A stretch of DNA of 39,089 nt from contig DATFRK010000966.1 in the NCBI GenBank assembly GCA_035263325.1, positions 1-39,089 of the forward strand, written 5' to 3'. The number at the start of each line of letters is the position of its first letter. Within the stretch, counting starts at the first letter, position 1. Positions 211 to 18,409 of the stretch are shown here, piece by piece. Source of the DNA: Pyrinomonadaceae bacterium (lineage in GTDB: Bacteria > Acidobacteriota > Blastocatellia > Pyrinomonadales > Pyrinomonadaceae). Both the position numbers and the translations under genes were made by a program. The notes below the pieces were generated by a model. The model was not told the DNA's origin and searched no databases. It was given only the letters and a program-made list of their open reading frames with translations.

Positions 211-2331
211 TCACAGGTTCGGGCTTCGCGGAAACTTCAAAAACGGGAGCCGCACGCCACGCACAAAAACTTGATCGGAGCGTATTGCCGGAGCAGGAGA
301 AAAACCATTTCCACCGGCTGCGGCGATCAGATCATCCTGGTCCACGCCGTCGCCACTGATGCCAATCGCTCCCACCAGCACTCCGTTCTTGTAAAGCGGA
401 ACACTGCCGGGAAAAATCTGCAGACCATTTGGCAAGTTCGGAATGGAAGTACAGGGCATCGGAGTCCCGCCTAGAGTGGCCAGCAGGTTTGCCTTGGTCA
501 CATCAAGTTGCAGGCCAACGTTGAAGACACTCCATTCGCTCAGTGGGGTACTGAATGGCCCAGCCTGGGTATTGTCGATGCCATCAGGGAAGAATGGCCG
601 GTGCAAAAAGCCGCCCGCCCGATCAGTGAAGGCCACTGAACCATTGAGTTGCAAACCATCAGCAGCAGCGCGGTCGACATAGGAACCAAAACCGGCGCCG
701 CGCAATAGAGTCGCAGCATTAGCATTTGAGTAAAAAGCTGCCGTTCGCGCCTTCTGCACTGCCACATCGAAACCAAACACTGGCGCGTCTTGCTGGCGAA
801 ACACACCAAGCACTTTGCCCTCAGCATCAACCACGGCGATCGTAACTCGTGCATTACTGCCTAGGGGTTGCCGGATCGCGGCTCGAGTGATGTTTGCTTG
901 TTGGGCGGCGTGCGCGATGATGGTCTGCACGTCAGTTGCACTCAACGCGTTTGCTGTGGCCGGAGAGCTGCCGGCGACAAAAGGAAAGAAGCGTGTATCG
1001 ACTTCCCCGGCGATGCCACCAACTGTCGCAGGTATAAAAGCGGACGTTGGTGGAGTAACAAAAGTTATCGAACCAACGCCGGGCAAGCTGCCGAATGGAA
1101 TCGTGGCGGGCGCCGGTGGATTGGCGACGTTGGAATACGCCAGACGTATACCATCGACTAGTATGTTGTCTCCCTTGATCAAAGCAGGCGCCTCAAAGCC
1201 TCGTACGCCTGAGGCGGCGATCAACTCCTCAAACGGTTGATCGAAGTCGGCCGGATCGCGATCTACCGTGTAGAGTCCGTCACCTTCGACGCCTATGCCT
1301 CCGGCAGCCACTCCGTTGCGATAGATGGGCAAACCACCAGGATCGGCGGAGAGGCCGACAGGTAGCGCTGGCTTCTTGATGTCGCTGCAGGGAAGAGAAG
1401 AGAACTGCACGCCATAAAGCGGGCCACTGGAGCGAAAACTGATGCCTGGCGGGAAGTGTTCCTGAACGATAAAACCGGCAGTGCGAGTCGTAAAAGCGTT
1501 GCCGCCAGTGCTGAAAAAAGCCGCCGTCCCGGCCTTTGAGGTAGCGGCTAGTAACGAAGGCACCACCTGTCCTTCGAGGCCGCGTCCCACTGTGCCGACG
1601 CTACGAATAGATGTCGTGGTTGGTGCACCCGTCATAGTGAACGTTCCCAGCACGTTGCCCTCTTTGTCAGTAACAACAACGGTAACGTTACGTCCCATTT
1701 GTGCTGCGGCAGAAACTGCCTGGGCAATGATCGTCTGAACATCACTGGGAGTCAGTGTGGTCGTGGGAATAGTTGGTCCAGGCGCCGGTTGCAAACCAGG
1801 GTTACCCGGCGTGGGCAACGCATCGACGGCATCGGGTGGTCCACCGCCGACGTGGCCAATGCCGACACGTACCCGATTGCTGGCGACGTTGTGATACTTG
1901 ATTCCCACCAGCACATCGCCGAGATCTGCCATCTCATCGTTAAGACGCAGGACAATTGAAGAAGCCCAGGGTTGATCTGGCACGTCGCCGACATACTCAA
2001 CCGTCAGTGGATGAACAGTGTGTTCAGCATCTTCGGCATCCGCGGTAACGAGAGCTGAAGTCTCGCCAGGCTGTAACTTCAGATTCATCGCAAACAGCAT
2101 GATGCGTGTGGAATGATCGATGCCGAAGGTCAGTTCGGAATTTGCGGCGAAGGGTTCGCGAGTGTGCGTGACTGACTCGAAAGCGATAGCTCGAGTCGAG
2201 TCTGAGTGACTGATGAGGACAGGAGCCGGTGCCTGGGCCGTAGCTTTCTGAAAACGATAGAGCGCGGCCAGAAGGAAACTCGCGCAGATAAACAACCAGA
2301 CTAGAAAGCGAATGCCTGAATTTGCGGTCAC
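211..2331 (-). CDS. Secreted or membrane-anchored protein with two tandem GlcG/HbpS-like (DUF336, haem-binding/degrading fold) domains
   Basis: 706-aa ORF with an N-terminal hydrophobic segment (IRFLVWLFICASFLLAAL). Two internally homologous modules are present: TPSDVQTIIAQAVSAAAQMGRNVTVVVTDKEGNVLGTF ... LPIYRNGVAAGGIGVEGDG, and SATDVQTIIAHAAQQAN...VTIAVVDAEGKVLGVF ... VPLYKNGVLVGAIGISGDGVDQDDLIAAAG. The second ends with the classic GlcG/DUF336 G-x-IG-[VI]-SG-x-x-x-x-D motif. Confidence 0.7.
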   Translation of the reverse strand: MTANSGIRFLVWLFICASFLLAALYRFQKATAQAPAPVLISHSDSTRAIAFESVTHTREPFAANSELTFGIDHSTRIMLFAMNLKLQPGETSALVTADAEDAEHTVHPLTVEYVGDVPDQPWASSIVLRLNDEMADLGDVLVGIKYHNVASNRVRVGIGHVGGGPPDAVDALPTPGNPGLQPAPGPTIPTTTLTPSDVQTIIAQAVSAAAQMGRNVTVVVTDKEGNVLGTFTMTGAPTTTSIRSVGTVGRGLEGQVVPSLLAATSKAGTAAFFSTGGNAFTTRTAGFIVQEHFPPGISFRSSGPLYGVQFSSLPCSDIKKPALPVGLSADPGGLPIYRNGVAAGGIGVEGDGLYTVDRDPADFDQPFEELIAASGVRGFEAPALIKGDNILVDGIRLAYSNVANPPAPATIPFGSLPGVGSITFVTPPTSAFIPATVGGIAGEVDTRFFPFVAGSSPATANALSATDVQTIIAHAAQQANITRAAIRQPLGSNARVTIAVVDAEGKVLGVFRQQDAPVFGFDVAVQKARTAAFYSNANAATLLRGAGFGSYVDRAAADGLQLNGSVAFTDRAGGFLHRPFFPDGIDNTQAGPFSTPLSEWSVFNVGLQLDVTKANLLATLGGTPMPCTSIPNLPNGLQIFPGSVPLYKNGVLVGAIGISGDGVDQDDLIAAAGGNGFSPAPAIRSDQVFVRGVRLPFLKFPRSPNL

Positions 2332-2515
2332 GGCAATTGCGGAGAGAAGTTGCGAAACGAACCCTTCAAGTCATTCCCAATGTATCACAAAGGATGCGGG
2401 ACAAAATAGATAGTTGTTTCCCAGAATTCCGTTGCCTCCCTACCACTCGTATGTTACAAGGCAAGGAAGTCGCGAATTTCGATCCTGTCTGTATCGCGAC
2501 TGATCAAGAAACAGC

Positions 2516-4573
2516 GTGAAGAGTTATCCCTTCAAAATCATAACTGTTGTTTTGTGGGTTATCTCGAGCTTTGCCTCCGCCGTGGCCCAAAGTGACGGGC
2601 ACCTCAAGGGCACGGTGAGGAATTCGAGTGGTGGCCAAGTGGCCGGAGTGGTGGTGGTTGCGACCAACCAGGTTACCAGCCAGGCCAAAGAAACGCGCAC
2701 CGCTAGTGACGGTTCTTATTCACTAAAACTTTCTCCGGGTGCGTATCGACTCACCGTTGCTCCACCAAACGTTGCTCAGTTCGATAAGGACAAGAACTAC
2801 GGCGACTTCATCATTGTTCGGGGTGACAGACTTGAGAATGTCATTGTCGATGCGGGTAAAGACATCGCAATCGATATCGTGCTGGCAAAACCCGAAGAGG
2901 TACAGATCCCGGCGACGCCTCAGCGCCGCGAGACGCCGGACCGCTGGCGCATCGAGTTTCCCGAGTACGATCGCTACGGAGATCGTGGTGCACGAGGTCG
3001 AGACATTCCCTTCAAACGCGGTCGTTGGTGGAATCCCTACAATCAAAGCGTTCTCAAAGGAGACTATCCAATCAAGGGCGACAAGCTCTTCATGATCTTG
3101 TCTGCCGTTAGCACGACGCCGGTCGAACAAAGACGCGCGCCAACGCCATCGGATGTTAGCAGTGTGGATCCATTGAGTGCGGAATTCTTTGGCCGGCCCG
3201 AACAATTCGCGACCAGCGAAACTTTGCAGGTTAGTTTTGAACTGTTTCATGGTGACACCACCTTCAAGCCGCGCGACTGGGCCATCAAGGTTTCCCCAAC
3301 TTTCAGCATTCCTAACTATCTGAACGCGCGGGAAAACGGGGTGGTGAATATCGATGTCCGACGCGGGACGAATCGCACTGACTGGCATGCCTCATTGGAA
3401 GAGGCGTTTGCTGAAGTAAAACTCGCGGACATTAATGCGAACTATGACTTCGTCTCTGTTAGAGCCGGCATTCAACCTTTTGTGTCTGACTTTCGCGGTT
3501 TCATCTTCTCCGACAACAACCTGGGAGCGCGCGTCTTCGGAGCAGGTGACAACAATCGCATTCAGTTCAACGCGGCGTATTTCTCAATGCTCGAGAAGGA
3601 CACCAATAGTGGTTTGAACCGCTTCGACACGCGTCACCAGAATGTCTATATCGGGAATATCTTTCGCCAGGATTTTATTCGTAAAGGCTATACCATCCAG
3701 GGAAGTTTTCATTACAACGACGATCGACCGAGCATCGAGTTTGATCGTAACGGATTTCTGGTGCGTCCGGCGCTTATCGGTGATGTTCGTCCGCACGCGG
3801 TTAAGGTTGGCTACCTCGGTTTTAGCGGTGACGGTCATCTTGGGCGATTGAATCTCTCGCACTCGTACTACTACGCCTTTGGGCACGATGAGCGTAATCC
3901 GATCGCTGGTCGCCGGATCGATGTCCGGTCAAACATGGCAGCAGCCGAAGCGTCAGTGGACCGGGATTATCTTCGCTTTAAGGGCTCTTTCTTTTGGGCC
4001 CAGGGCGACAGCAATCCCACGGACGACAAGGGGACCGGTTTTGATGCGATCTTCGACGATCCTAATTTTGCCGGCGGGCAGTTTTCTTTCTGGGTGCGCA
4101 ACGGCATTCGTTTGACTCAAACTGGAGTTGGGCTGGTCCAGCCGAACAGTTTGTTGCCAAGTTTGCGCAGCAGCAAGACTCAGGGCCAGGCGAACTTTGT
4201 GAATCCGGGGTTATTTCTCTACAACGCCGGCGTGGATATCGAACTAACGCAGCGTATCAAGGCCGTCGTCAATGTAAACTACCTGAGGTTTCATCGAACG
4301 GAGCCGTTGGAGTACATCCTCTTTCAAAATGCTATTCGCCACGAGATTGGCTGGGACTACAGTTTAGGAGTGGCTTATCGTCCATTTCTCATTAACAACG
4401 TGACCCTGACGTTTGGTGCGGCGAGTTTGCAGACGGGCCGAGGCTTTCGTGACATCTTTACCGACAAGTCGCGAAACTGCCCGCCGAACGTCGGAGATTT
4501 TTGCGAGCCGGCGGTAATTGGTCCAAACAAGATGTTGTATTCGTTGTTTGGCCAATTGAAGTTGGTGTTCTAG
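2516..4573 (+). CDS. Outer-membrane beta-barrel protein with N-terminal carboxypeptidase-regulatory-like (CarboxypepD_reg) domain
   Basis: GTG start. Signal peptide MKSYPFKIITVVLWVISSFASAVAQ. Residues ~27-125 fit the CarboxypepD_reg pattern (GTVRNSSGGQVAGVVVVATN...TASDGSYSLKLSPGAYRLTV). The remaining ~550 aa have a beta-strand-like alternating aromatic/hydrophobic pattern with G/N/D turns and a C-terminal ...GQLKLVF ending in Phe, as in BAM substrates. I recognise no TonB box or plug. Barrel subfamily is uncertain (alginate-export/porin-like). Confidence 0.7.
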   Translation: MKSYPFKIITVVLWVISSFASAVAQSDGHLKGTVRNSSGGQVAGVVVVATNQVTSQAKETRTASDGSYSLKLSPGAYRLTVAPPNVAQFDKDKNYGDFIIVRGDRLENVIVDAGKDIAIDIVLAKPEEVQIPATPQRRETPDRWRIEFPEYDRYGDRGARGRDIPFKRGRWWNPYNQSVLKGDYPIKGDKLFMILSAVSTTPVEQRRAPTPSDVSSVDPLSAEFFGRPEQFATSETLQVSFELFHGDTTFKPRDWAIKVSPTFSIPNYLNARENGVVNIDVRRGTNRTDWHASLEEAFAEVKLADINANYDFVSVRAGIQPFVSDFRGFIFSDNNLGARVFGAGDNNRIQFNAAYFSMLEKDTNSGLNRFDTRHQNVYIGNIFRQDFIRKGYTIQGSFHYNDDRPSIEFDRNGFLVRPALIGDVRPHAVKVGYLGFSGDGHLGRLNLSHSYYYAFGHDERNPIAGRRIDVRSNMAAAEASVDRDYLRFKGSFFWAQGDSNPTDDKGTGFDAIFDDPNFAGGQFSFWVRNGIRLTQTGVGLVQPNSLLPSLRSSKTQGQANFVNPGLFLYNAGVDIELTQRIKAVVNVNYLRFHRTEPLEYILFQNAIRHEIGWDYSLGVAYRPFLINNVTLTFGAASLQTGRGFRDIFTDKSRNCPPNVGDFCEPAVIGPNKMLYSLFGQLKLVF

Positions 4574-4593
4574 TTGTAAGACGTCGTCAAATC

Positions 4594-5103
4594 TTCACCA
4601 CGGAGACACAAAGAACACGGAGGGGGCACAGAGAAACAAACAAGAAATCAATAGTCAGAAAAGGAGAAGCTTATGGATCCTCACCTAAATGAGCTGACAC
4701 ATGAAATCATTGGCAGCGCAATTGAAGTTCACCGACATCTGGGACCAGGACTACTCGAGTCCGCTTATCGACTGTGTCTTTGTCGAGAATTATCTCTTCG
4801 AGGATTCAGTTTCAATCACGAGCACTGGCTTCCGGTTGACTACAAAGGTCTAGAGTTGCCATGCACGTACAAGGTGGACATCGTGGTTGAGAAACTGGTG
4901 GTGGTTGAGTGCGAAGCGGTTGAAGCGTTGCAGCCGATTCACGACGCCCAACTCTTAACCTATCTTCGGATCGGCGGCTGGAGACTGGGACTACTAATCA
5001 ATTTCAACGTGGTAGTTCTAAAGAATGGTATCCGCCGCAAGATAATGGGGTACGACAACTAATCTCTGTGTAACCTCCGTGCTCTTTGTGTCTCTGTGGT
5101 GAA
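4594..5103. mobile_element. Inverted-repeat-bounded GxxExxY gene cassette (candidate miniature insertion, no transposase)
   Basis: The left arm 4594..4633 (ttcaccacggagacacaaagaacacggagggggcacagag) and the reverse complement of 5064..5103 (ttcaccacagagacacaaagagcacggaggttacacagag) are identical at 35 of 40 positions. They bracket a single 129-aa gene and fill almost the whole spacer between the barrel gene stop (4573) and the cytochrome start (5128). Confidence 0.6.
4673..5062 (+). CDS. GxxExxY family protein (PD-(D/E)XK nuclease-like superfamily)
   Basis: 129 aa. The N-terminus LTHEIIGSAIEVHRHLGPGLLESAYRLCLCRELSLRG contains the eponymous G-x-x-E-x-x-Y (GLLESAY). It is followed by VDIVVEKLVVVECEAV and QLLTYLRIGGWRLGLLINF, typical of this family. 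GGAG lies 7 nt upstream of the ATG. Confidence 0.85.
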   Translation: MDPHLNELTHEIIGSAIEVHRHLGPGLLESAYRLCLCRELSLRGFSFNHEHWLPVDYKGLELPCTYKVDIVVEKLVVVECEAVEALQPIHDAQLLTYLRIGGWRLGLLINFNVVVLKNGIRRKIMGYDN

Positions 5104-5127
5104 AATTTTAGTTGCCCTAAAGTCATC

Positions 5128-8100
5128 ATGATGATGCGAGCGATCAAATTTGTTCTGGCGGTATTAACTAGTGCGACTGTAATTGGCGCCATATCAGCGT
5201 CATCACCGCCTTCAAACACGGTCACCGAAGAATCAACACTCTTCAGAAATCAGACACCGGCGCCCGCCAAGCTCGAAGGGTGTGTCTCCTGTCACGGGCT
5301 GATCGAGCCGATGCATAAGTACGGCACCACCGACACCCTCGACAAGCTCAAAGACGGCAAAGATGCCGTGGGCTTAAGTTGCACCGCCTGCCACGGCGGC
5401 AACCCATTACCCAGTAAAACCAGTGAAGACCCGAAAGAAATCGAACGCGTCAAGCGCGAGGCGCACGTCAAGGCGCGCTTTCCCAATGAATGGCTGCGGA
5501 ACGGGCGCGCCACCGGAGCCAATCCCGAACGAACGAATACACTTCTTGCTCGTGAAAGTTGGGAGTACGTCCGCTTCATCAATCCTGGTGACTTGCGTGT
5601 CGCCGCTAAAACTTGCGGCGGCGGCGCCTGTCACGACCTCGAATCCAAGAATGTTGCTCGCAGCATGATGACCCACGGCGCCATGCTCTGGGGTGCGGCA
5701 CTCTACAACAACGGCAGTTTCCATCTTAAAGATCCACGCTTCGGAGAAAGTTACAACGAAGCGGGCGCGCCGCAGACCCTGCTGCAAGCTACGACCGAAG
5801 AACAACGGCGCGCCAAGGGCATGTTGAGCCTCCTCGACCCGATTCCACGCTGGGAGATTTCGCAGCCTGGTAACGTGCTCCGTGTGTTCGAACGAGGTGG
5901 CAAACGTCGACTCGAAGTAGGTCTGCCTGATAAGGAAGAAGACCCGGGTAAGCCCGACAAGGGCCTGAGCGCCCGCGGCTTCGGCAGCGCGCAACGCACC
6001 GATCCGGTCTTCCTGGGATTGCAGAAGACGCGTTTGTTAGATCCAACCCTCAATTTCCTGGGTACCAATGATCACCCAGGCGATTATCGTTCGTCGGGTT
6101 GTGCCGCCTGTCACGTGATCTATGCCAACGATCACGATCCTGCGCACTCAGCATCCTATGCGCAGGCCGGAAATCTCGGTCGTTCGCAAACAGCCGATGT
6201 AAACATTCCTAAAGATGAGTCGGGCCATCCAATCAAACATCAATTCACCAGTCAGATCCCTTCGTCGCAGTGCATGGTCTGTCACATGCACCCGGGCACA
6301 AACATGGTCGCGAGTTATCTTGGTCTAACCTGGTGGGACAATGAATCAGACGGCAGCAAACTCTATCCCACGAAGCAACACAACCCCAGCCAGGACGAGG
6401 AACAGGAGAAACTGGATCGCAATCCGGAAGCGTCCAGCCTGCGCGGCCTGTGGTCAGACTTTGATTTTCTTGCCAAGACCGGAACACCAGATTTCAACGC
6501 CCTGCTGCGCAACACGCAATTTGCCGATTCGCACGGGCACGGTTGGCTCTTTCGCAAAGTTTTCAAACGCGATCGTAAGGGCAACCTCCTCGACGCCCAG
6601 GGAAATATAGTTTCCGCCGACGATCCCAACAAATTTAGCAAGGCAGTGCACCTAGACGACATCCATCTCGAAAAAGGGATGCACTGCGTCGATTGTCACT
6701 TCCGCCAGGACTCGCACGGCGATGGCAATCTCTACAATGAACCGCGCGCGGCGATCGAGGTCTCCTGTGAAGACTGTCACGGTTCAATTCGCCAGAAGGC
6801 GACGCTGTTTACTTCGGGCCCCGCTGCTGCATTGACGACGGGCAGTGCGGCTGAACGACGGAAGACGCAAAAACAACCTCTCCTCGGCCAGGATATGACC
6901 CGGATTCGCGTCCGGGATGAAACGGGCTCGGCGATCCCGCTCTTTCAAAGAATCACTCGCGACCGCAAACGCAAAGATGAAAAAGGGGCCGACATCGATC
7001 TTAAAGTCGGCGACGTTGTCCAGAACTCGATGGTTGTGCCTGGCCGTTGGTGGCGCGTGGTGCAAACTCTCGACACGATCACACCCAACAGTCGCGACTT
7101 CAGTGAGAAGTCGCGCTACGCGAAAACAATCCGCAAAGACAACGCTACCTTCGGCGATGTTCCGGCCGACAACAACCTGTTGGCCCATAGGGACTCGGAC
7201 ATGACCTGTGTCTCATGTCATTCGTCCTGGATGACCAGTTGCTTTGGTTGTCACTTGTCGATGCAGGCGAACCGGAAGATGCCCAACAGGCACAACGAAG
7301 GCGGCAACTCACGCAACTTCACCCAGTACAACTTCCAGGTCTTGCGTGATGACGTGTTCATGTTGGGACGTGACGGTACCGTGACCGGCAATCGAGTGGC
7401 GCCGGTGCGCTCTTCGTCCGCCATTTTGGTTAGCTCGCAGAATCAGAATCGCGAGTGGATCTATTCACAACAGCAGACAACTTCTGCCGAGGGTTTTGCC
7501 GGCCAAACATTCAACACCCATGTGCCACATACGGTAAGGGCGAAGGAAACAAAAGCTTGTAGCGACTGTCACGTGTCGGAGAAGAACGACAACAATGCCT
7601 GGCTGGCCCAGTTGCTGTTGCAGGGCACAAACTTCGTTAACTTCATGGGTCGTTATGTTTATGTTGCAGCCGCCGATGCCCTGGAAGTTGTAGTTGCAAC
7701 GGAGCCGACCGAGCCGCAAGCAGTTTTTGGCAGCACCCTGCAGAAGATTGCCTACCCAACGAACTATGAGGAGTTTGTCCGTGGTGGCAGCGAACTGAAG
7801 ACTGCTTACGAGCACAGCGGCAATCCACGCGTGCTCCAGGTGCAGTTGCGCGGCGAGTACGCGTACGTGGCCGCAGGCGAAGGCGGGTTGCGTGTTTACG
7901 ATGTCGCGCAGATCGATCAGAAAGGCTTTTCTGAAAGAATAACCACGGCTCCCGTGTCGCGCTTTGGTCAGAAGTTTTGGGTGAAGACTAAGTATGCGAC
8001 TGCTGTGGCGGCGCCAACCACCCTGGCGGTGGATCCGGCCCGTTGGCGCGTAAAGGCTGATGGGACAATGATTGATCCGGTCAGTGCAGCACGTCTAAAC

Positions 8101-9063
8101 GGGGCAGCGCGGCGGCAGTTAGTGAATGAAGAGCAACCAATTCACCCGCTTTACGCCTATCTCTATGTTGTCGACAAGTATGAAGGATTGATCGTCGTCA
8201 ATGCGGCGACTCTACTCGATGGCGATCCACTCAACAACTATCTGAAACGCGCGCTGGACGGACAAAGGTATGCGCGCGGTGCGTTCAATCCAGCTGGGGC
8301 GCTCAATGATGCAAATAACATCACCATCGCAGGCACTCACGCGTACATCACCACCGCGAGTGCGCTGGTAGTAGTCGATATTAATGATCCGTTGAATCCG
8401 CGCATCGTAAGCAAGGTTGAGTTGAAGCATCCCCGTTCGCTGGCCATCCAGTTTCGTTACGGTTTCGTGGTAGATGACGAAGGGCTCAAGGTACTCGATT
8501 TAACAATGCCCGAACGTGCGCAATTGGTGAATGGCGCTGGCGTCGCACTGGCAGATGCGCACGACGTCTATGTCGCTCGCACTTATGCGTATGTGGCCAA
8601 TGGCAAAGAGGGGATTGCGATTATCGATGTGGAGCAACCCGAGCATCCGCGGTTGGACCAGAGCTACAACGCCGAGGGAAAACTGAGCGATGTGCATCAA
8701 GTGAAGGTGGCGATGACGAATGCGAGTTTGTTCGCGTACGTCGCGGACGGAAAGAATGGGTTGCGCGTCTTGCAGCTGACGTCGCCGGAAACGACGCCGG
8801 AGTACGCGGGCTTCAGCCCTCGGCCCCGGCCCGTTCTGATCGCGACTTATAAAACTAAGGGAGAGGCGCTTGCGATTTCCAAGCCGCTGGATCGTGATCG
8901 GGCGGTTGATGAGAGTGGTAACCAGGTTTCGGTGTTTGGCCGCCGTGGCGCTCGCCCATTCACGCTGGAAGAGATGATGCGGATGCTGCGTACCAATGAT
9001 GGTACTGGCTCCTGGTTCCGGGTGAGCGACGAACCGTCACGGACGACTTCAAGCTTGCGCTGA
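5128..9063 (+). CDS. Secreted multihaem (about 10 haem) c-type cytochrome with C-terminal LVIVD-repeat beta-propeller
   Basis: The ORF track starts at 5086, inside the right inverted repeat. I prefer ATG 5128 ([24 protein letters not shown], signal peptide). There are nine in-frame CXXCH motifs at 5281, 5380, 6100, 6271, 6685, 6766, 7207, 7240 and 7558, plus a CX4CH (CGGGACH) at 5614..5634. The C-terminal region 7855..8790 carries six repeats of the type YAYVAxGxxGLxVxD. Confidence 0.85.
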
Positions 9064-18312: not shown

Positions 18313-18409
18313 AACTCTCCGCGCTGTCTCCGCGAGTCTGGGGTGGCGTTGAAGCGAAAAATGGACTCTACCGCAGAGGCGCGAGGACGCAGAGGTTGCG
18401 CGGAGAGTT
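18313..18409. repeat. Long imperfect hairpin in convergent intergenic region, related to the GxxExxY cassette arms
   Basis: Perfect 12-bp outer stem aactctccgcgc (18313..18324) / gcgcggagagtt (18398..18409), with further imperfect pairing inside. The right half ctaccgcagaggcgcgaggacgcagaggttgcgcggagag follows the same accRcRgagRcRcRaRgaRcRcRgagg pattern as 4594..4633. Confidence 0.5.

Follow-up and report, generated by a model that had tools for sequence, protein, structure and literature searches.

Intervening sequences (IVSs) that carry an open reading frame (ORF) for the protein S23p are found in the 23S ribosomal RNA (rRNA) of Coxiella burnetii and Leptospira. In Coxiella, the IVS spans 428 nt and has a 28-bp stem formed by its terminal repeats, as well as a sense-oriented internal ORF; three to four tandem GACAGAT heptamers follow a weak Shine-Dalgarno sequence and precede the ORF start, and RNase III cuts the element out, with the 5' cut at the first heptamer repeat (PMC4990558). 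A different gene-repeat association is formed by single-copy REP-associated tyrosine transposases (RAYTs), which are flanked by repetitive extragenic palindromic (REP) sequences and are conserved and vertically inherited at a fixed locus (PMC3337134; 10.1101/2022.05.22.493013). Here we describe a cassette in a 39,089-nucleotide stretch of DNA from a Pyrinomonadaceae bacterium (assembly GCA_035263325.1, contig DATFRK010000966.1, positions 1 to 39,089; hereafter the window), in which two inverted copies of a lineage-wide palindromic repeat bracket a small GxxExxY-family gene that has its own ribosome-binding site; the gene is located in the spacer between two protein-coding genes and co-oriented with both. 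A first-pass annotation, made from the letters of the sequence alone, had proposed a 40-bp inverted-repeat cassette inserted into a tight operon junction, and had likened it to rRNA IVSs that host small cargo genes; such IVSs do exist (Coxiella IVS, PMC4990558).

Results

A GxxExxY gene between inverted tandem-unit arms

The cassette lies between an upstream gene at 2516..4573 (+ strand), termed "barrel" in the first-pass annotation, and a downstream cytochrome gene at 5128..9063 (+ strand). Direct reading of the sequence confirmed that the 40-nt arms reported at 4594-4633 and 5064-5103 match as inverted repeats at 35 of 40 positions. Using a repeat finder, the arms were extended to 46 nt (4589-4634 and 5063-5108; 87% complementary, with 428 nt between them), and the CACRGAG periodicity was resolved into four units per arm (CACGGAG, CACAAAG, CACGGAG, and CACAGAG), starting at 4599, 4607, 4616, and 4627 with periods of 8, 9, and 11. 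The purine-rich left arm (+ strand) carries these tandem units at 4599-4633 with TTCACC before them; the right arm (+ strand) is its reverse complement, begins 1 nt past the cargo stop codon, and ends with GGTGAA. The agreement between the arms is beyond chance, because a 30-mer arm core has only two sites in the window, namely the arms themselves (expected 0, 100 shuffles), the inverted-repeat score of the flanks is 62, while shuffles average 15.9 and reach 22 at most (z = 23), and the arms are predicted to pair both when joined via an artificial loop (42-bp interrupted stem, -69.5 kcal/mol, z = -13.5) and in the native 581-nt transcript (z = -5.1). The predicted folds thus agree with the long stem that had been anticipated for a read-through transcript.

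A single plausible gene is present between the arms, at 4673-5062 (+ strand), preceded by AAGGAG at 4661-4666, 6 nt upstream of the ATG. Its leader (4635..4672, + strand), which includes this Shine-Dalgarno sequence, lies within the loop that the predicted stem closes, and the fold leaves it unpaired with the arms. The barrel stop codon (TAG, 4571-4573) is separated from the left arm by 20 nt, and the right arm from the cytochrome ATG (5128) by 24 nt; without the cassette the gap would therefore be ~44 nt, in line with the ~45 nt noted earlier. Transposase and integrase domains were absent from the 29 large window ORFs scanned, as the first-pass annotation had supposed for transposases. Rfam scans of 4300-5400 (permissive thresholds), of the whole window (gathering thresholds), and of 20 related loci (gathering thresholds) gave no hits, placing the hairpin outside curated RNA families and rRNA genes.

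The cargo is a constrained PD-(D/E)XK-fold protein

The 129-amino-acid product of the cargo gene scored well above cutoff with both TIGR04256 (136.4 bits, cutoff 35; profile positions 1-115 of 116) and PF13366 (PDDEXK_3; 133.5 bits, cutoff 22), so its provisional classification as a GxxExxY, PD-(D/E)XK-like protein holds. The signature motif reads G26-L-L-E29-S-A-Y32, with G26, E29, and Y32 invariant in an alignment of 75 diverse members; E29, D69, and E79 do not vary across the family. Codon 81 (4913-4915) is GAA (Glu), at a position occupied by the Lys of the ExK motif in at least 90% of the family, and the D...(D/E)-x-K active-site motif of the window copy is thus incomplete, K81 being replaced by E. 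E81 is common to the two closest relatives, P0121 (95% identical) and P0122 (88% identical). The ratio of nonsynonymous to synonymous substitution rates (dN/dS) of the cargo, relative to its homolog at the related locus L174, is 0.11, compared with 0.09-0.11 in lysine-keeping lineages; judged from these rates, the E81 lineage remains constrained despite loss of the ExK lysine.

An AlphaFold model of the cargo has a mean predicted local distance difference test score (pLDDT) of 96, a predicted template modelling score (pTM) of 0.89, and an alpha-alpha-beta-beta-beta-alpha-beta order of elements; a more diverse alignment was needed for this confident model, a shallow alignment giving a pLDDT of 42. 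A PD-(D/E)XK core fold is thereby confidently predicted. The best Foldseek matches among solved structures were Cas4 SSO0001 (4ic1, TM 0.52), LHK-Exo (alkaline exonuclease), lambda exonuclease, RecE, and tRNA-splicing endonuclease, all of them weak (TM ~0.5, E 2e-3 or worse, 10-20% identity). A search of the PDB by cargo sequence gave no solved relative, and no match to the cargo was found in the PADLOC (defence) or PHROGs (phage) libraries.

The family is large, with 19,315 clusters at 50% identity matching at E <= 1e-3. Many of its best representatives (P0241-P0258) are 260-295 amino acids long and contain two GxxExxY domains; these may be genuine tandem fusions, or may come from the merging of neighbouring cassettes whose arms lack a stop codon in one frame. 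No paper addressing the function of GxxExxY or PDDEXK_3 proteins was found in the literature; three papers contain the GxxExxY name and one the Pfam name, with passing mentions in two.

The gene-plus-arms design recurs across several phyla

Relatives of the cargo at 47-100% identity are encoded in 40 metagenomic loci. The flanking inverted repeats beat all 100 shuffles in 24 of 31 non-redundant GxxExxY loci, a set that includes the window and four plasmid loci. The arms of GxxExxY loci consist of three to four tandem units of lineage-specific sequence (CACAGAG, CGCGGAG, CGCCAAG, or CACAAAG), and lie 0-45 nt from the ends of the GxxExxY ORF. Across 25 GxxExxY loci, the neighbouring gene is oriented like the cargo in 20 of 20 cases downstream and in 20 of 23 upstream; the spacers are usually short, with downstream gaps below 100 nt in 15 of 20.

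The design was also present in cultured bacteria. Bacteroides finegoldii has a GxxExxY gene between radA and a gene for an FAD protein, with arms of the TTCACCACAGAGG type (TTCACCACAGAGGACGCAGAGG); in Bernardetia the gene lies between ade and manC with arms of the same design, and in Gemmatirosa (G. kalamazoonensis) a complete hairpin is present on each side of it. In Sphingomonas (S. parapaucimobilis), the gene is located between fabD and fabG, accompanied by an upstream arm only (three CGCGAAG units). Collectively, the gene-plus-arms design recurs across several phyla.

The arms belong to a dispersed, mostly gene-less repeat family

A 35-nt arm pattern was scanned against GTDB genome contigs and matched at least 119 stretches, mostly from metagenome-assembled genomes (MAGs) of Pyrinomonadaceae or other Blastocatellia; Isosphaeraceae, Phycisphaerae, Gemmatimonadaceae, Anaerolineae, and Methanotrichaceae were among the other taxa in the matches listed. 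The last of these are contigs binned as archaeal MAGs (L090, L091, L101, and L125), and the arm pattern they carry is of the bacterial type.

In a census of 850 kb of arm-containing genome loci, 250 arms were counted. Back-to-back (-,+) pairs with a gap of at most 60 nt numbered 52 (modal gap 26-27 nt); face-to-face (+,-) pairs numbered 29 with loops of up to 60 nt and nine with loops of 61-200 nt, and five arm pairs were gene-sized (351-700 nt). A GxxExxY gene lies inside four of these five (L051, L084, L100, and L136), and the fifth (L062) encloses a 165-amino-acid ORF without a family match. The arm census suggested in the first-pass annotation thus showed that arms do recur and that gene-sized pairs mostly hold GxxExxY, but most arm copies are gene-less palindromes. 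Among the 31 (+,-) hairpins with a scorable ORF on both sides, 11 lie between convergent genes.

The abundance of the arms is also apparent in soil metagenome contigs, whose depth over 5052-5115 (right arm) is 360-845, compared with ~5 on the flanks (70-140x), and many of which link the right arm to the left arm over 11-26 nt, corresponding to the gene-less doublet form. Arms (L050) and the junction gene (L173) are found together on the chromosome OY970193.1, and the gene-less doublets in L030 and L032 are of the same lineage-specific unit type as the gene-flanking arms on the same contig. Neither of two outcomes that the first-pass annotation had set against a cassette was found, namely arms that are unique to this locus and kept without the gene, or a gene that always occurs without repeat boundaries.

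Several further forms of the repeat were observed. In L032 (26-2413), a helicase-like ORF continues in frame across two short arm hairpins (261-314 and 1422-1550), which add peptide inserts such as PQRHEGHEEESLWSLCLCGSS and recall the in-frame palindromic elements in Rickettsia genes. At L083 (4620-4800), L116 (1840-2010, same MAG), and many other loci, back-to-back doublets are nested in an outer inverted repeat (GGCTTTGCNCNAAAAGTC..., or GGTAGTGTCT..TTTGAA), forming a composite element of ~190 nt that recurs in both orientations within one genome. Isosphaeraceae arm pairs at L106 (3009-3230 and 5284-5504), L119 (6626-6851), and L120 (5859-6090) have conserved loops of 156-162 nt without a convincing ORF, and look like a subfamily resembling miniature inverted-repeat transposable elements (MITEs) with a common internal sequence. 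The window itself contains another palindrome of this repeat class, a degenerate one, at 18313..18409 (no strand assigned), between convergent S15 peptidase and methyltransferase genes; its 22-nt arms, reversed in direction relative to those of the cassette, are 82% complementary, 53 nt apart, and built of the GC-rich units CGCAGAG and CGCGGAG (right half ACCGCAGAGGCGCGAGGACGCAGAGGTTGCGCGGAGAG).

The junction was filled long ago and emptied repeatedly

The same barrel-cytochrome junction is filled in at least 12 diverged relatives (L007, L009-L014, L051, L084, L100, L173, and L174), one of which, L173, is a closed 7.5-Mb chromosome. Cargo identity to the window is 67-73% in most of these and 88% in L174, and barrel identity ranges from 75% to 97%. 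In an unbiased sample of eight barrel orthologues scored for junction state, the gene was present in two (one intact, one a 62-amino-acid fragment); four had no gene and a spacer of 6-25 nt, one had an unrelated 93-nt spacer, and one had a 365-nt spacer, scored by length only. Tight gene-less junctions, expected by the first-pass annotation if the cassette had inserted into an operon, therefore do exist, but the number of diverged relatives with a filled junction shows that any insertion was not recent.

Immediately 5' of the cytochrome ATG, the gene-less junctions retain two to three degenerate arm units, one instance being CCACAAAAGGCACAGAAGACACAAAATG in L004. A pristine empty site was accordingly rejected, and because degenerate units remain, a gene-less junction reflects loss rather than a virgin site. 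In the barrel tree, junctions lacking the gene are scattered among filled ones, the empty L168 being sister to the filled L013, and two deep clades have an occupied junction. The topology of the cargo tree is broadly that of the host tree; L006 and L008, whose cargo is found in other genomic contexts, are placed beside the window copy. The dN/dS of junction cargo is 0.03-0.11, with the synonymous divergence (dS) saturated between clades. Since the cargo tree broadly follows the host tree, the empty junctions are interspersed, and degenerate units are kept, the simplest history suggested by these sequences is that the gene was gained long ago, descended vertically under purifying selection, was lost several times, and occasionally relocated.

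The arrangement of the arms varies among relatives. The enclosing layout, [+]gene[-], is present in the window, L007, L012, L051, L084, and L100, and in L174 with the right arm duplicated; L010, L013, and L173 have gene[-][+], and L014 has [-][+]gene[-][+]. The description as an inverted-repeat cassette is thus true of the window, but the enclosing layout is just one of several at this junction. In L174 (1632-1797), two (-) copies of the right arm lie ~66 nt apart between the cargo and cytochrome genes, which shows that arms at the junction are still being rearranged. Between the window and L174, the arm is identical at 39 of 41 positions and the leader at 35 of 38, and arms plus leader are 87-95% identical overall; since the neighbouring genes show a dS of 0.5-0.8, the arms and leader are constrained or homogenised. 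The window flanks (4571-4588 and 5109-5127) have TAGTTG in common, with scattered further matches, and L007, L084, and L100 have no direct repeat; TAGTTG, at first sight a candidate target-site duplication, is not reproduced in relatives. The insertion is old enough for any such duplication to have decayed.

Arm mismatches in filled cassettes favour G.U pairs on the sense strand

Transition mismatches between the arms of filled cassettes were scored by whether they leave a G.U pair on the sense strand, which was favoured 38 to 15 (p = 0.002); by arithmetic on the same tally, the count without the junction family is 23 to 6. Gene-less arm pairs between co-oriented genes showed no such bias (36 to 41), and because these doublets are unbiased, a simple mutational strand asymmetry is argued against.

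The host locus

The upstream host gene encodes a 685-amino-acid protein with a CarboxypepD_reg domain (Pfam PF13620), and a protein search identified its orthologues at 77-94% identity as named Pyrinomonadaceae proteins. The downstream gene encodes a 1311-amino-acid multihaem cytochrome with LVIVD repeats, which weakly matches the ExtM/ExtN models. Together with a gene for a divergent 706-amino-acid HbpS-like protein, they make up a locus (window 211-9063 and L173 1-14244) that resembles an extracellular electron-transfer or haem-related cluster; several further multihaem cytochromes are encoded upstream of it in L173. The remaining window is ordinary chromosome, with MutS, polysaccharide export proteins, and glycosyltransferases among the encoded products.

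Discussion

We tentatively favour the reading that the cassette is an operon-riding passenger like a 23S rRNA IVS, residing in mRNA instead of rRNA, because it has the same anatomy as the Coxiella IVS and is located in an mRNA spacer; we put its probability at roughly 45%. The cassette would be transcribed by read-through from the host operon, and its arms would pair in the transcript as an interrupted stem of ~42 bp, looping out the cargo and bringing the barrel stop codon and the cytochrome start codon within ~44 nt of each other. With 21 uninterrupted bp at its base, this stem is a candidate RNase III substrate. Cutting there would part the two host cistrons and free a cargo mRNA, which would be translatable because its Shine-Dalgarno sequence lies in the loop; as the first-pass annotation proposed, it might also uncouple the mRNA stability of barrel and cytochrome. 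The protein itself probably acts on nucleic acid that bears the arm repeat. The G.U bias of filled cassettes is consistent with pairing of the arms as RNA. Read-through is in keeping with a scan of 4300-5400 that predicted no intrinsic terminator and no promoter, the promoter search being limited to sigma-70-type sites.

A number of observations weigh against this reading. The cargo of rRNA IVSs is the four-helix-bundle S23p, unlike the PD-(D/E)XK cargo here, and the Rfam scan placed none of 21 cassettes (the window and 20 related loci) in an rRNA gene. The G.U count is just 15 to 9 in the junction family and 2 to 2 in the arms of the window, so that the signal is a property of the class and not of the window copy. 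Compensatory arm changes between the window and L174 were looked for, and none was found; RNA runs were searched for the sequences of the window and L025, and no run contained either. Moreover, the gene is kept without an upstream arm in L010, L013, and L173, and with complete local hairpins on both sides in L014, which indicates that an enclosing stem is unnecessary for its retention.

Dispersal of the arms raises the question of whether they act as DNA. In a partnership like that of REPINs (dispersed REP doublets) and RAYTs, a domesticated nuclease would copy or maintain the arm doublets, with the arms beside its gene as cis sites and the RNA stem a by-product. We regard this, the main rival, as somewhat unlikely. 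It would accommodate the excess of 52 (-,+) doublets with gaps of up to 60 nt and 38 (+,-) pairs with gaps of up to 200 nt over five gene-sized pairs, four of them with GxxExxY, as well as the 70- to 140-fold depth of the arm in soil metagenomes, the unit type shared by gene-flanking arms and empty doublets within a contig (L030 and L032), and the fixed locus, vertical inheritance, and purifying selection of the gene; the varied arm layouts among relatives are as expected from doublets inserting and decaying. The cargo, however, matches only PF13366 and TIGR04256 and has a PD-(D/E)XK fold rather than that of an HUH/Y1 (IS200/IS605-like) transposase, GxxExxY genes are multi-copy in some genomes, no activity is known for any GxxExxY family member, the window lineage stays constrained though its ExK lysine is lost, and the sense-strand G.U bias points to RNA. 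A passenger processed from mRNA and a protein that tends its repeats on DNA are mutually compatible.

It is quite improbable that gene and arms have no functional link, GxxExxY being an ordinary host gene and the arms REP- or MITE-like hairpins that settle independently in spacers, where they may stabilise mRNA or terminate transcription like REP, enterobacterial repetitive intergenic consensus (ERIC), and Correia elements. Such settling would fit the predominance of gene-less arm pairs between unrelated genes, the hairpins between convergent genes (11 of 31), the several layouts at one junction, and the lone upstream arm in Sphingomonas. However, arms flank GxxExxY genes of several phyla (24 of 31 loci), lie within 0-45 nt of the gene ends, and enclose such a gene in four of five gene-sized pairs, a degree of specificity that independent settling would not produce. 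Still less probable, and in our judgement very much so, is a recently active DNA element, be it a cargo-carrying transposon or MITE, an integron cassette, or a homing-endonuclease gene that stands alone, its product cutting empty junctions so that repair copies the gene in. The differing occupancy of close relatives (L013 filled, L168 empty), the location of the nearest cargo relatives L006 and L008 in other genomic contexts, and the nuclease fold of the cargo would suit such an element. It is opposed by the want of a convincing target-site duplication (TAGTTG here, none in L007 or L084), the lack of an integrase or transposase in the scanned window ORFs, and tandem-unit arms unlike the R''-L''...L'-R' structure of attC. 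A recent arrival would also be hard to reconcile with a cargo tree resembling the host tree, saturated dS between clades, degenerate arm units at gene-less junctions, and the fact that no cassette above 88% identity was seen outside the barrel-cytochrome junction.

Carried further, the passenger reading and the parallel with REPINs could merge into a more general proposal, which we consider unlikely as a whole: GxxExxY proteins and heptamer-core arms would form a prokaryote-wide protein-repeat partnership, a PD-(D/E)XK counterpart of REPIN-RAYT in which the protein maintains or disperses the doublets; ORF-bearing 23S IVSs would belong to this class of element, having ended up in rRNA, and it would be the stem that lets the elements sit harmlessly in operons and rRNAs.

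Public records already annotate the GxxExxY family, of which the window copy is an ordinary member; the curators of the TIGR04256 model may have noted a link with intervening sequences. In our literature searches we found no description of the gene-plus-arm grammar, the operon co-orientation, the gene-less repeat population, or the parallel with rRNA IVSs. The family thereby gains a reproducible genomic grammar, consisting of operon co-orientation, tandem-unit inverted arms, and many gene-less arm palindromes, which brings together three phenomena so far dealt with apart: ORF-bearing rRNA intervening sequences, REP-like dispersed palindromes, and small orphan genes for nuclease-fold proteins. 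These links are testable in cultured bacteria, for instance at the radA locus of Bacteroides finegoldii and the fab operon of Sphingomonas. There are practical consequences as well, as reading through the arms accounts for ORF calls that are spuriously fused or extended at the N terminus, and the repeat family fragments soil metagenome assemblies.

The cassette can be placed alongside four groups of described systems. Nucleases of the Cas4 and lambda-exonuclease type are the best, though weak, structural matches of its cargo, which differs from them in being a minimal 129-amino-acid domain without the Fe-S cluster module. Correia elements of Neisseria, ERIC, and REP or bacterial interspersed mosaic elements (BIMEs) are likewise inverted repeats in operon spacers that fold in mRNA, but they contain no gene and are unrelated in sequence to the window arms. 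Correia elements are RNase III substrates and alter mRNA stability. With REPIN-RAYT systems the cassette shares a gene flanked by an inverted short palindromic repeat, a repeat dispersed mostly as gene-less doublets, and a gene that is conserved and vertically inherited at a fixed locus; it differs in that each arm consists of three to four tandem units, 8-11 nt long, in place of one REP hairpin, and in the PD-(D/E)XK rather than HUH/Y1 fold of its protein. The closest likeness in anatomy is to the ORF-bearing 23S IVSs, with which it has in common a size of ~430-510 nt, a terminal-repeat stem, tandem repeats with a 7-nt core, a single small sense-oriented ORF in the loop, and no mobility gene (PMC4990558). 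An inverted-repeat stem around a sense ORF is thus common to both, whereas the host RNA differs, being helix 9, 25, or 45 of 23S rRNA for the IVSs and an operon spacer between protein-coding genes here. The state of the ORF differs too: that of Coxiella is decaying and has its Shine-Dalgarno sequence cut away, whereas the window cargo evolves under purifying selection and has a strong Shine-Dalgarno sequence within the loop.

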